64,000 bases of DNA from Gamaleyavirus NAN33P5. Made by a program: the position numbers and the translations under genes. The stretch lies in sequence record OZ035750.1, one strand, 5' to 3'. How positions within the stretch are numbered: the first letter of the stretch is position 1; each line of letters opens with the position of its first letter. The notes under the pieces were generated by a model. The model was given only the letters and a program-made list of their open reading frames with translations, was not told the DNA's origin and did not search any database. Of this stretch, positions 25,744 through 31,075 are shown in pieces.

Positions 25744-26298
25744 TTATGCCTTTATTAATTTAATGAGATTCTGGAAAGCTGGGAGATTTACACCAGCGTG
25801 GATTGCACCGATTGCATCGGCTAAGTGCTCATTCTTATTCAGAAGTTTGCCCTTCTTATCTGTGAGCCAGTTGGCTTCAGGATAGATAGCATGAGCAGCA
25901 CGAATCATCGTGTCTTTGGATGCAGTTTTATCACCTACCAGTGCAAGTTTATTTTCAATTGGGGATACTTCAAAGATTGGGCAACCCAATGCACGGAATG
26001 CACCGATTAATCCTACGCATACACCATAGGACTTCATTCCGTTAGCAGACTGAGAGCCTACTGGTACTTCTACGAATACTGCTTTAGCAGATCGTAACCA
26101 TTCTTCACAACCAAGAAACAAATCATGGGCAGCTTGTATATCTTTGGAGTTGGTTCGAACTTGTTTGTTGTGGTCAACTTCAGTTTGAACCAGTCTAAGT
26201 TCGACCTGCTCGAAGACACCGGACTCAATGTCCAGCATCCCACGAGCTAATCCCCAATTGCGGAGGCTAATGTCTGCACCGACAATTGGGATTTTCAT
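25744..26298 (-). CDS. RuvC-like Holliday junction resolvase
   Basis: N-terminal IVGADISLRNWG resembles the RuvC GIDPG..TG motif; C-terminal EHLADAIGAIHAG resembles the RuvC catalytic H/D helix. Confidence 0.45.
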   Translation of the reverse strand: MKIPIVGADISLRNWGLARGMLDIESGVFEQVELRLVQTEVDHNKQVRTNSKDIQAAHDLFLGCEEWLRSAKAVFVEVPVGSQSANGMKSYGVCVGLIGAFRALGCPIFEVSPIENKLALVGDKTASKDTMIRAAHAIYPEANWLTDKKGKLLNKNEHLADAIGAIHAGVNLPAFQNLIKLIKA

Positions 26299-27095
26299 TA
26301 ACGCTTACCGAACAGAGATTTACCACCGGCTGGAGTAGTACCTGTGCCAGCACCTGGTTTAGGAGGCAAGCCACCTTTACCATTACCACCAGCAGAACCC
26401 TTGGTCTTATCACGGGTTTTACCTTTGTTCTTTTCCAGCCATGCTGCATGGAATACAGCCAGTTCTGGGGTCAGTTCTTTCTCAGCCTTCTCTGCTTCCT
26501 GAGCCTCGACGACTGTGACCAGCAGTTCCGGGTGAAACACTTTCTGAATCTCGTTTACTTCACGAGTTTCACCGGAGTCAACGTAACCGTTGTCACCTTT
26601 AACCTGCTTAGCTTCCAGAACCTTTTCCAGAGCGAAGGTAACAGTCTGACCAACCAGATCAACTGGAACCATTACAGACTTATTGGTTTCAGCTTTCAGG
26701 TCGAAGTCATAGACTTTAACAATCTTCTCTTCGAAGTCAGCTTCCGGCAGTTCACAACCAGTAGCCATAAGCATCATGTCATTAATGACAGTGTAACCAG
26801 GCAGGAAGTATTCTTTACCATTCTTCTCGTAAGTTGGCTTATTGCCTTTAGCATTACCAGAAGTAAAGTACACCTGAGCACGGAACTCACCAGCATCATT
26901 GCCGTCGGAACCTTTCAGGTTTTCAATGATTAACTGCATCCAGTCTGCACCAGAGTCAGCTTTACCTACGTAAGCTACTTTTACAGTACCGGTGTAGATA
27001 TCAGATTCTTTTGCACCGAAGCCACCACCACCTAGGGAGTCTTTTGCAGCTTCAACGTTTTTGGTCTTTTCTTTCAAGTTACCGAACAGTGACAT
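26298..27095 (-). CDS. putative single-stranded DNA-binding protein
   Basis: 265-aa protein with Gly-rich N- and C-termini, in replication module next to ATPase and primase; size and position consistent with N4-type SSB. Confidence 0.4.
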   Translation of the reverse strand: MSLFGNLKEKTKNVEAAKDSLGGGGFGAKESDIYTGTVKVAYVGKADSGADWMQLIIENLKGSDGNDAGEFRAQVYFTSGNAKGNKPTYEKNGKEYFLPGYTVINDMMLMATGCELPEADFEEKIVKVYDFDLKAETNKSVMVPVDLVGQTVTFALEKVLEAKQVKGDNGYVDSGETREVNEIQKVFHPELLVTVVEAQEAEKAEKELTPELAVFHAAWLEKNKGKTRDKTKGSAGGNGKGGLPPKPGAGTGTTPAGGKSLFGKR

Positions 27096-27135
27096 AATAT
27101 TTTTCCTAATAAGTGATTAACAACCAGGCAAACGC

Positions 27136-27888: not shown

Positions 27889-27944
27889 TATTTTTCCTCG
27901 TTTAGTTTAGGAGTCCTTCAAACCAAAGAAAGACTCCCGTTTGC

Positions 27945-30099
27945 TTACTTGCCAGCGAAGCGTTTAGCCACGGTGACCATTACGGTTGAATTCAATTCAT
28001 CATCTGGCAATGGATTAGCCAGTTTCTTATTGAATGAGTAGACGGCTTGCTGTACTTGAGCAAAGTCCCAACCACTGTCTACTAATGCCAGTGCGTACTT
28101 AATCATTTGATTATTACGATTACCGGAGGCAATACGACCAGCGAACCAACGCTCCAGATTGTCTAACGACTGAACTTCCTTCATCTGGTTCTGGAACTGC
28201 TCGTTCTTACTGGTACGAGGAATAAAGTCACGTACATCCAACAGATTTGCATCAAGATTGTAATGATAGGAACCAGTCTCACAGGACATCCACTTCTTGG
28301 CTCGTTGGTTAGCAGACTCATCCGTTTCGAATGGTAGCCAAGCCATAACGTTATTCATGAACTCTTTGTATTCCTCGGTATCAAGGTGTAACTCATAGTT
28401 CATTGGAATAATCAGACGGAAGCGGTTCTCTTCGTCGGTATGACGCTTAGTGGTATAGGTCATGAACTTATATTCCTTCATCAGTTCATGGCACGTATGC
28501 AGAGGTACTCCACCATCGCAATCAATAACAATCATGTTAAATCCTGGAATAACGTTCTCTTCAGAACGATGCCCATTCTTCATGTGATGGTTTACCCAGT
28601 GCATACCGGGAGCTTGGGTTAATACATGTAGCTGGTCAAACGGAACACGTTCACCAACATAGTCATAAGCAAAGCTATCACTATATGCCACTATCATCTC
28701 ATTGGTGTCAGTCTCTTTCAGAGTCTCACCACGGAAGAACTCAATACCCTCATTGAAGGTCTTCTTAATAATGATGTGCTGTTTGTAACCCCATGCTGTA
28801 GCAAGAGTCATCATCTCATTACGAGCTGCATTACCACTCTTATAGAAAGGTAAAGACTCCAGCAAGTCAGCATGAGTCACTTCCTTGCCTACTGAGGCAA
28901 TGTACTTAGCCAGCTTCACATAGGCTTTCTCACGATTGAGAATACCCTGGAATGCTGCCCCGGATTCTTCTACGAGCAGGATTGCTTGTTTAAGGTGAGT
29001 CATTTCAATGAATGAACTCTGGTCAACAAACGCCAGTGCACCTGCCAGCTTAAGAGCCTTGAAGTAACGGTGGGAGATCTCAGCCTTACGAATTTCTTCA
29101 TGGTCAGCCATAGCCTCTGCTTGCTTCTCACAATCAATTTTGTAAGTAATCAGAGCAATACCCACTGCATCTTCCACAATCATCTTAAAGCCAAACAGGT
29201 TTGGGTCAGCCAGACTATGGAAGTGGTTAGCCCACTTACCAAGAGACTGGACGTTATCCTGCTTAATCAGGTTACGGTAGATTTCTTCCGGGGTCAGCGT
29301 TGCATGTGCTCGCTTGTCTAAGTGCCCAATGGCAAACAGACAACGACGTGCATACCCTGTATCAAGGAAGTCATAGAACTGGTCTTCAGTCTGCCCACCA
29401 TCCAGCAGCTTACTCGGAGTACCGAACAGCAGTAAGTTAGCAGGAGTTTTACCATCCAGTTCTTCGCCACGAATACTTTCAGCAGTGTTCTTGGTTAACT
29501 TCTGTTTTACTTTCCCCTGGTCATATAATTCAAGGAACAGGTTAAGCACTTCAACGTTGGCAATGAGGTTGGAACCAATCTCATCAATCTGTAAGTTAAT
29601 AGCACCACAACCAGCCATAAGTAGTTTGTGACGAAGTTGTTTTACAGCAGGTGCTGTACCAGAGTCGAATGTGAATGGGAATGCCCCAGCACGCTTATAC
29701 TCTGCTTCAACTTTATCGAACTCATCATTCTGGTCCGTACCCTGACGAGCAGCACGTTCATTAGCAATCTTCCATAAACGGTCATTTGCAATGACGGGCA
29801 TGGTGTCTTCCATAAAACGTTTACGGAAGCCAGTCATGAACCCGTCTTCAATGATATTTACTGAGTGACCTTTACCGAAACCAGATGTAGCCAACGCCAT
29901 AGCGTAGATGTTTACCGGCAGGTCACCACGGTCTTTAGTTACGATGGTTGCACCCATGCAGGATGCCATTTTAGCCAAGAAGTAGGCTACTTCGACACGG
30001 AAGAATCCCCGGTCGTTATTCTGGGTTTTATTGCAGAGCACATCTACGATTTCTTCAATCGCTGGATGGTGCACTACTCCGGTAAGGTCAATACTCATG
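27945..30099 (-). CDS. putative DNA primase with P-loop NTPase domain
   Basis: ATG at 30099 overlaps upstream stop (ATGA); P-loop ATSGFGKGHS; C-terminal region with MIVIDCDGGVPLH (acidic DxD-type motif) consistent with primase-polymerase fold. Confidence 0.45.
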
Positions 30100-31075
30100 A
30101 TGGAAAATATCTCTCTCTTTGTTTGCAAATAGATGCGACAGGGCAGTAAAGACATCTTTTAACCTGTCCCTCCACGACCTTGATAGCACCTTTGCCACCC
30201 TTTTCAGCCATGAAGATACGGGCAGATGCCATATCGTCAAAGTTTTTGGTACTTCTGGCTCCAGGTACATCTACCTTAGAAGCATCAGAGAAGTATTTGA
30301 ACTGTGGCTCCGTTCGCCACAACTCCTCGTCAGTACATTCAGGGATTTCCTCTTCAGGTGCATCCCAGTACTTTTCGATTAAGTAAATCTTCTCTTCCAC
30401 CCAACGCTCAGTCTTCTCGACAGACAGCAACGGAATATCCTTATGCATAATACGATTAGCAGGATAGTTCGGATTGCTGTTAGCCATGTGTTTCATGAAG
30501 TCGGTGAAGATGTAGTTAATACGAATTACATCCTCAGTAATGATGTCGTTGTGAATCCATCGGTACAAGCTGCCTTGCATCTTGTGTTCATCATCACGGG
30601 AACCAGCAACCCAGGAATAGGTTGAGGTAGACTTGAAGTCTTGTAACAGACCTTCTGTTACGATGTCGAATTTACCACCAATAGTCCATCCCTTAACCTG
30701 CTTGGTTCCACGTTGTTCAATGTAGATTGGGATAAGGTCGGGGTTAGCAGCAAAGTCTGCTTTGGTTGGGTTAATGACTACTGCATCAATTACTCGCTGA
30801 GGATAACCTAGCTTCTTCAATGCAGTCTTATGACCTAGCTTCCAGGCTTTCTCGATAGAATCATGTAAGCCAGTACCCATTGATGTGGATACAAAATCCA
30901 TAACATCAATTGACTGGTCACTAAAATCTACACGATGCTTCATGACGATTTGCTTAATAGGCTTAAGCAATGTAGTAGCAGACAGATACTTAGGATTGTC
31001 TACGTAATCATAATCATCTGTAACAAGCCAAACAGCTAGTGCAAGACTAACATCATGATTGTTAGTTATCTTCAT
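30095..31075 (-). CDS. putative PD-(D/E)xK nuclease with C-terminal Cys cluster (Cas4/RecB-like)
   Basis: Start taken at internal Met (MKITNN) abutting upstream stop; GKFDIV...LQDFK motif and C-terminal CLYCPVASIC cysteine cluster. Confidence 0.4.
   Translation of the reverse strand: MKITNNHDVSLALAVWLVTDDYDYVDNPKYLSATTLLKPIKQIVMKHRVDFSDQSIDVMDFVSTSMGTGLHDSIEKAWKLGHKTALKKLGYPQRVIDAVVINPTKADFAANPDLIPIYIEQRGTKQVKGWTIGGKFDIVTEGLLQDFKSTSTYSWVAGSRDDEHKMQGSLYRWIHNDIITEDVIRINYIFTDFMKHMANSNPNYPANRIMHKDIPLLSVEKTERWVEEKIYLIEKYWDAPEEEIPECTDEELWRTEPQFKYFSDASKVDVPGARSTKNFDDMASARIFMAEKGGKGAIKVVEGQVKRCLYCPVASICKQRERYFPS

Follow-up and report, generated by a model that had tools for sequence, protein, structure and literature searches.

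Gamaleyavirus NAN33P5 is represented by sequence record OZ035750.1, from which a stretch of 64,000 nucleotides (the window) was analyzed. Five consecutive open reading frames (ORFs) lie on the minus strand at 25744-31075, exactly within the outer limits given for them in an initial annotation made from the sequence alone. In the direction of transcription, their predicted products are a RecB-family nuclease, a helicase-primase, a Sak4-like ATPase, a protein that binds single-stranded DNA (SSB) and a RuvC-like Holliday junction resolvase. These genes very probably make up the N4-type block for replication and recombination in a Gamaleyavirus (G7C/N4-like) phage, acting by the mechanism proposed below. 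The initial annotation had described a compact recombination module; it named the genes rightly, and the unit to which they belong is the conserved N4-type replication block rather than a newly recognized recombination cassette. The observation was thus correct and ordinary, and the block is already known.

A block collinear with N4 gp42-gp46

The five proteins are collinear with gp42-gp46 of phage N4 (NC_008720) and orthologous to them over their full lengths by BLASTP, with identities of 70% (gp42), 81% (gp43), 76% (gp44), 60% (gp45) and 68% (gp46). N4 is the closest known system: the same five genes occur there in the same order, oriented in the same way with respect to the polymerase, helicase and virion RNA polymerase genes. 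N4 belongs to Enquatrovirus, whereas the genus here is Gamaleyavirus. The DNA of the region is 92-98% identical to that of more than 50 sequenced Gamaleyavirus (Schitoviridae, N4-like) phages of Escherichia, Shigella and Klebsiella, among them vB_EcoP_G7C, PhAPEC5/7, Mimir124 and IME11. E values for the PHROG matches of the five proteins run from 5e-42 down to 0. Because of these values, the scores of AAA_24 and PriCT_1 above their Pfam cut-offs, and the identities to N4 and at the DNA level, the family matches lie far beyond chance. An NCBIfam scan of the block proteins gave no meaningful matches, and PDB sequence searches with all five proteins (single-sequence and profile) gave only one weak match, described with the resolvase below. 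All five families named in the initial annotation were upheld by the profile searches and by orthology to N4, and no profile search assigned an ORF to an unrelated family. The motifs that it cited are present and, in the resolvase, helicase-primase and nuclease, invariant across homologues.

Conservation was followed in 82 loci, of which 80 came from a viral contig collection and the other two from Mimir124 and N4. Wherever the contig reaches, exo-primase-sak4-ssb is the constant order in 82/82, down to about 50% nuclease identity, and the longer order hel-gp38-pol-(gp40-gp41)-exo-prim-sak4-ssb is likewise constant. Variation is limited to insertions in some relatives and to a swap of the resolvase gene. 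A mobile or defense cassette was considered and rejected, as the block is a fixed core of the phage family in these loci. Some close relatives carry extra DNA within the block (L001 11786-12283; L005 between 8978 and 9490), and L007-L009 have inserts in the exo-primase and primase-sak4 intervals. The Mimir124 insert, located before the nuclease gene, is annotated as an HNH homing endonuclease, and HNH genes are also annotated in the matched region of G7C and PhAPEC5. The block of NAN33P5 has no HNH or homing-endonuclease insertion (compared over window positions 27889-31075).

The genes are tightly packed. At position 31075, the ATG of the nuclease gene shares an ATGA with the stop codon of the gene upstream; the stop of the nuclease gene and the start of the primase gene overlap likewise at 30095-30098, and the SSB stop and resolvase start overlap as TAATG. 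The sole gaps in the block are 56 nucleotides between primase and sak4 and 40 nucleotides between sak4 and ssb. Because of the ATGA overlap with the nuclease stop, the primase most likely starts at MSIDL and not at the upstream ATG. The tight packing and the overlapping stop and start codons suggest that the block genes are probably co-transcribed and translationally coupled. A consensus scan of 22000-37000 found no terminator-like site within the block and fewer sigma-70 promoter-like sites than in shuffled sequence. The promoter scan says little about the block, since in N4 the middle genes are transcribed by a phage-encoded RNA polymerase II (PMC4496689).

An inverted repeat, GGAGTC...GACTCC, occurs on the minus strand at 27910-27937, in the gap between primase and sak4, with a 6-bp stem and a 16-nucleotide loop. 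It lies just past the primase stop codon and about 20 nucleotides ahead of the sak4 start. It has no downstream T-run, which makes it unlike an intrinsic terminator, and it might act in RNA processing or in the control of translation.

Table 1. Genes, predicted domains and nearby features of the replication block (window positions unless residues are given; functions as predicted)
Feature	Position	Strand	Size and remarks
Gp47-like protein	25323-25742	minus	139 amino acids; directly after the resolvase gene, outside the limits of the initial annotation
RuvC-like resolvase	25744-26298	minus	184 amino acids
N4-type SSB	26298-27095	minus	265 amino acids
Sak4-like ATPase	27136-27888	minus	250 amino acids
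Helicase-primase	27945-30098	minus	717 amino acids from the MSIDL start; mechanical ORF extends to 30155 (736 amino acids)
DUF3987/MCM-like AAA+ ATPase	helicase-primase residues ~40-460		N-terminal
Archaeo-eukaryotic primase (AEP)	helicase-primase residues ~465-630		C-terminal
PriCT-1 helical domain	helicase-primase residues ~645-715
RecB-family/Cas4-like nuclease	30095-31075	minus	326 amino acids; mechanical ORF extends to 31147
Pol A polymerase	31850-34429		near the block
Virion RNA polymerase counterpart	11284-21654	opposite to the block	ORF of 3456 amino acids

Predicted functions of the block proteins

The nuclease is a predicted RecB-family/Cas4-like PD-(D/E)xK enzyme and the apparent orthologue of N4 gp42, whose RefSeq record gives the product as "exonuclease" (NC_008720). 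It matched phrog_2139 ("exonuclease"; E 4e-152) and phrog_1706 ("CRISPR/Cas system associated"; E 6e-12). Pfam PDDEXK_1 scored 17 bits, under its 22-bit cut-off, and was matched by 17 of 46 homologues (best E 5e-6). Across these 46 sequences, which extend down to 35% identity, D137, D146-x-K148 and Q167-x3-Y171 are invariant, as are C247 and C308-x2-C311-x5-C317. These residues combine the motifs of the RecB family with four clustered cysteines, an arrangement also found in Cas4 and AddB, and the cysteines probably form an iron-sulfur cluster. The initial annotation had noted a C-terminal cysteine cluster. Iron-sulfur RecB-family nucleases of the Cas4/AddB kind are alike in having the hhD, (D/E)xK and QxxxY motifs with a distant cysteine and CxxCx5C. 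Unlike in Cas4, the first cysteine here follows the nuclease motifs and is not N-terminal to them. Pfam Cas4 matched neither the nuclease nor any of the 46 homologues, for which PDDEXK_1 was the sole match, and the neighbors of the gene are lytic-phage replication genes with no CRISPR context. Together, these two results rule out true Cas4 identity. "Cas4-like" or RecB-family is a fair label for the fold and the cluster and does not denote membership of the Cas4 family.

The primase gene is predicted to encode a helicase-primase in which an MCM-like ATPase is joined to an AEP primase, orthologous to N4 gp43 ("dns"). PriCT_1 scored above its Pfam curated cut-off at the C-terminus, and DUF3987 matched the N-terminal half only weakly. 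Invariant across homologues are Walker A (G73-x-G75-K76), Walker B (D172-E173), the paired arginines R251-R252 and the DxD residues D526/D528. A PriCT-1 domain and an AEP catalytic fold with its DxD motif were both found. The AlphaFold model is good at 460-717 and poor at 56-460, where the predicted local distance difference test score (pLDDT) is below 50 over most of the length; Foldseek with this model returned nothing significant. The top 120 homologues of the protein were all 71% or more identical to it. In N4, dns has been described as essential for replication and as an atypical fusion in which an MCM-related DUF3987 helicase stands ahead of an AEP primase (Kazlauskas et al. 2016, PMC4889955), so the architecture is already published. 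The P-loop/primase fusion of the initial annotation was correct and underdescribed, since the part N-terminal to the primase is a predicted helicase.

The Sak4-like ATPase is a putative core-only RecA-fold protein of the single-strand annealing protein family and the likely orthologue of N4 gp44. Pfam AAA_24 (PF13479) matched it with E 1e-10 (42.2 bits; cut-off, 27), and two PHROG families labeled Sak4-like were matched, phrog_124 ("ssDNA annealing protein"; E 6e-49) and phrog_2872. Walker A (G18-x4-G23-K24-S25) and Walker B (IIID88) can be read from the translation. BLASTP against Sak4 of phage HK620 gave two collinear segments, one at the Walker A end (E 1e-6) and one at the C-terminal SPMGMFD end (E 1e-5). 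The ssb gene begins 40 nucleotides past the end of sak4, so a cognate ssb is adjacent, as for about 80% of sak4 genes (PMC5928155). Genes for Sak4 have been found in virulent N4-like phages, with N4 named explicitly (Hutinet et al. 2018, PMC5928155), and HK620 Sak4 anneals complementary single strands in an ATP-dependent reaction stimulated by the neighboring SSB (PMC5928155). No gene-essentiality data for N4 gp44 or gp46 were found in the literature.

The Sak4-like ATPase and the nuclease might instead serve mainly in counter-defense or host takeover, for example by degrading host DNA or protecting phage ends from RecBCD. Cas4/RecB-type nucleases and P-loop ATPases are common in defense and anti-defense contexts, and sak4 was first identified through phage mutants escaping a Lactococcus phage-resistance system (PMC5928155). 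The ATPase is also weakly matched by the NCBIfam model of BrxF (E 0.002, far under the model cut-off), but this match spans only the Walker A loop (residues 7-43). Moreover, both genes are core genes in a fixed order inside the replication block in 82/82 loci, unlike accessory counter-defense genes, and we consider such a main role highly improbable.

The initial annotation also regarded the Sak4-like and Cas4-like genes together as a recognized phage recombination cassette. That claim could not be confirmed: no such pair was described in the literature searched, and in this phage the primase gene separates the nuclease gene from sak4. The documented pairing is that of Sak4 with an adjacent SSB (PMC5928155), and RecE/Red-alpha-type exonucleases are paired with recombinases in general (PMC2896510).

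The SSB is predicted to be of the N4 type and orthologous to N4SSB (gp45, "dbp"). It is 60% identical from end to end to the biochemically characterized N4SSB and is the most diverged of the five proteins; both are 265 amino acids long, and the C-terminal peptide is KSLFGKR here and KSLFGKK in N4. The protein had no Pfam, NCBIfam or PDB sequence match. An AlphaFold model built with 63 homologues (pLDDT 82.8, predicted template modeling score 0.74) has a beta-rich core at about residues 30-230 and two disordered tails. The modeled core may be a divergent oligonucleotide/oligosaccharide-binding (OB) fold, in agreement with the description of N4SSB as a "highly evolved OB-fold" (PMC4889955). Structure prediction had been proposed as a check on the assignments; the SSB core and residues 460-717 of the helicase-primase were well modeled, and the helicase half came out at low confidence. 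None of the 63 SSB homologues matched DUF669 with HMMER, and hhalign of the SSB against the HK620 SSB was weak (probability 6%, E 0.006). The link between N4SSB and DUF669, reported with 98% HHsearch probability (PMC4889955), is therefore taken from the literature and not from our profile searches.

N4SSB is reportedly essential for N4 replication, is needed for recombination and late transcription, and activates host RNA polymerase at late promoters through its C-terminus and the RNA polymerase beta' subunit (PMC4496689, PMC2784036). By orthology, the SSB of NAN33P5 is likely to be a late-gene activator as well. Its assignment as an SSB in the initial annotation was right and incomplete, for this probable role in transcription had not been considered.

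The resolvase slot and a shared terminal peptide

The last gene of the five encodes a predicted RuvC-like (RNase H-fold) Holliday junction resolvase, the apparent orthologue of N4 gp46. It matched phrog_159 ("RuvC-like Holliday junction resolvase") with E 5e-42. The sequence itself had no Pfam or NCBIfam match; Pfam RuvC was matched by 11 of 37 homologues at 50-57% identity (best E 5e-6), and a PDB profile search returned only the RuvC-family protein MOC1, with E 0.9. Residues D9, E77, H158 and D161 are invariant in 37 sequences, and we read their order as fitting the RuvC catalytic set D...E...(D/H)xxD.

The position of this gene was compared in the 59 related loci with sufficient sequence downstream of ssb. 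A RuvC-like gene is present in 47 of them, and in the other 12 (L018, L030, L034, L035, L039, L042, L043, L050, L052, L058, L072 and L077) a RusA-like gene of about 130 amino acids occupies the same slot. The replacing proteins are called RusA-like by PHROGs, and Pfam finds nothing in them. The alternation of two unrelated resolvase families provides good evidence for a junction resolvase gene in the slot, and it may be a new observation.

The gp47-like gene follows the resolvase gene in 57 related loci. Its product matched phrog_7641 (E 2.5e-61) and, over positions 145-273 only, the 311-position phrog_14238 ("RusA-like Holliday junction resolvase"). Some of the RusA-like genes in the slot stand alone and others are joined to a gp47-like domain; proteins in which a gp47-homologous domain is fused to the RusA-like part are encoded in L030, L034, L039, L052 and L058. 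In the slot, one resolvase has been displaced by a non-orthologous one, a swap that links the gp47-like orphan to junction resolution. The gp47-like protein is thus probably a sixth member of the block. It consists of a small N-terminal domain, an acidic low-complexity linker and a C-terminus ending in KPSLFAGLKRS.

This C-terminus shares a short peptide, S-L-F-(G/A), with both ends of the SSB, which begins with MSLFGNL and ends with KSLFGKR. In each case a disordered linker joins the peptide to the folded part. The pattern [ST][LIM]F[GAS] falls within the last 25 residues in 56 of 64 SSBs and 45 of 57 gp47-like proteins of related loci L003-L082, and a looser SLF-type C-terminal pattern is present in 55/57 gp47-like proteins. 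Among the other plus-strand ORFs of the related loci, only 3 of 1253 carry the pattern in that position. Within the window, the only other ORFs with the terminal motif are three small ones on the opposite strand, which are taken as spurious. We found no earlier description of the peptide, and no search was aimed at it. There is also a resemblance between the peptide and the final three positions of the motifs (QLSLF type) that bind bacterial sliding clamps. Tentatively, S-L-F-(G/A) may be a shared docking tip that recruits the SSB and a resolvase-associated factor to one common partner, an idea we hold to be possible though doubtful. Candidate partners could be a replisome component, Sak4, or the RNA polymerase beta' site contacted by the N4SSB C-terminus. 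Such a tip, if real, would be the counterpart, on a basic tail, of the hub that the acidic tail forms in E. coli SSB and T7 gp2.5, and it would give the orphan gp47 family a function. The peptide and the resolvase displacement are modest leads for how N4-like phages process replication intermediates, and these side observations could shed light on the way a single SSB tail acts in replication as well as in transcription.

Proposed roles in replication and recombination

In the mechanism that we propose for the block, the helicase-primase and SSB, with the nearby Pol A polymerase, would drive fork synthesis. The nuclease would resect 5' ends or remove primers and so expose 3' single strands, which Sak4 and SSB may then anneal to complementary DNA such as the terminal repeats of other copies. 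This annealing would build concatemers and restart forks. Branches would be cut before packaging by the resolvase, with the gp47-like protein assisting or targeting it. As in N4, the SSB C-terminal peptide would probably contact host RNA polymerase and switch on the late genes on the opposite strand, and late expression would in this way be tied to replication. Recombination-dependent replication, as suggested in the initial annotation, plausibly fits this scheme.

The same genes could also form a purely replicative set, with the nuclease removing primers, Sak4 acting as a helicase loader or accessory ATPase, the RuvC-like protein debranching DNA for packaging, and recombination incidental. 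The block directly follows the polymerase and Dda-like helicase genes, both N4 dns and N4SSB are reportedly essential to replication, and the set has been described as a conserved N4 DNA replication system (PMC4889955, PMC2784036, PMC4496689). In addition, the N4 polymerase has no 5'-3' exonuclease domain (PMC2784036), which would make a separate primer-removing nuclease useful. However, N4SSB mutants are also recombination defective, to judge from the title of Choi et al. 1995 (cited in PMC2784036 and PMC4496689), and the Sak4 proteins tested so far anneal DNA and support recombineering (PMC5928155, PMC2896510). A dedicated resolvase, RusA-type in some relatives, further implies that branched recombination intermediates form. 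A replisome with merely incidental recombination is thus unlikely, and we favor the combined replication and recombination block.

Several points weigh against this preferred reading. The nuclease and resolvase sequences themselves fall under Pfam thresholds that only homologues pass, and the MCM assignment of the helicase leans on a low-confidence model and on the literature. The catalytic activities of the block proteins are predicted from homology, and the single operon is deduced from gene arrangement. The parts given to Sak4, nuclease and resolvase in concatemer formation are drawn by analogy, and no demonstration of them in any N4-like phage was found in the literature. We presume, from the RefSeq product name, that the N4 "exo" gene is gp42; no open-access statement mapping "exo" to gp42 was found.

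The kit of T7 includes the SSB-annealase gp2.5, endonuclease I (gp3), the helicase-primase gp4 and the 5'-3' exonuclease gp6. T7 is also a virulent short-tailed phage with terminally repeated linear DNA and the same functional kit, built from a DnaB/DnaG-type fusion, a FEN-type exonuclease and the endonuclease I fold. To our knowledge, T7 differs in that none of its proteins is homologous in family to those of the block and in that it has no separate RecA-fold annealase.

The closest characterized recombination module is the Sak4-SSB module of HK620 (hkaL-hkaK), in which sak4 is directly followed by a non-canonical ssb in the same transcriptional order and Sak4 shares both terminal regions with the Sak4-like ATPase described here. 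The HK620 SSB is a distant homologue of the N4 SSB (PMC5928155). HK620 differs in being temperate, in using Abc2 to hijack RecBCD in place of a nuclease of its own, and in its SSB tail, NDYPPF, compared with the basic tail KSLFGKR. Lambda Red and RecET resemble the block in that a 5'-3' PD-(D/E)xK nuclease works with a single-strand annealing protein, and exonuclease genes of the Red/RecET type are often near Sak4-type recombinases (PMC2896510). In contrast with Red and RecET, the annealase here has a RecA fold (Sak4) and is not Rad52-like, the nuclease carries a four-cysteine cluster, and a helicase-primase gene lies between the nuclease and annealase genes.

These results confirm that motif reading can name a phage replication and recombination block correctly, and they bring no new biology. 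They have value for annotation: many records of this phage group (e.g., H3 and H15) label these genes "hypothetical," and the evidence supports the names nuclease, helicase-primase, Sak4-like annealase, SSB and late activator, and RuvC-like resolvase.

Further features of the window lie outside the block. The gp41-like protein (31072-31548, minus strand, 158 amino acids) is a small conserved domain encoded between the polymerase and nuclease genes. Its first ~86 residues match PHROG families in which the domain is the C-terminal part of longer proteins, one of which bears a 3'-phosphatase/5'-polynucleotide kinase label (E 6e-20). The 3456-amino-acid ORF corresponds to a coding sequence annotated "virion RNA polymerase" in the 96%-identical phage Mimir124. 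Between this gene and the replication block, where the DNA is largely non-coding, ARAGORN called two adjacent tRNA-like genes on the minus strand at 23361-23520, one a tRNA-Ile (anticodon AAT) and the other an irregular call with a two-base anticodon loop. The Mimir124 counterparts of two minus-strand ORFs at 21935-22450 and 22542-22934 (L001 2898-3386 and 3505-3897) are automatically annotated as "anti-CRISPR protein"; the N4 counterpart of the ORF at 21935-22450 is annotated as a DUF2829 protein.

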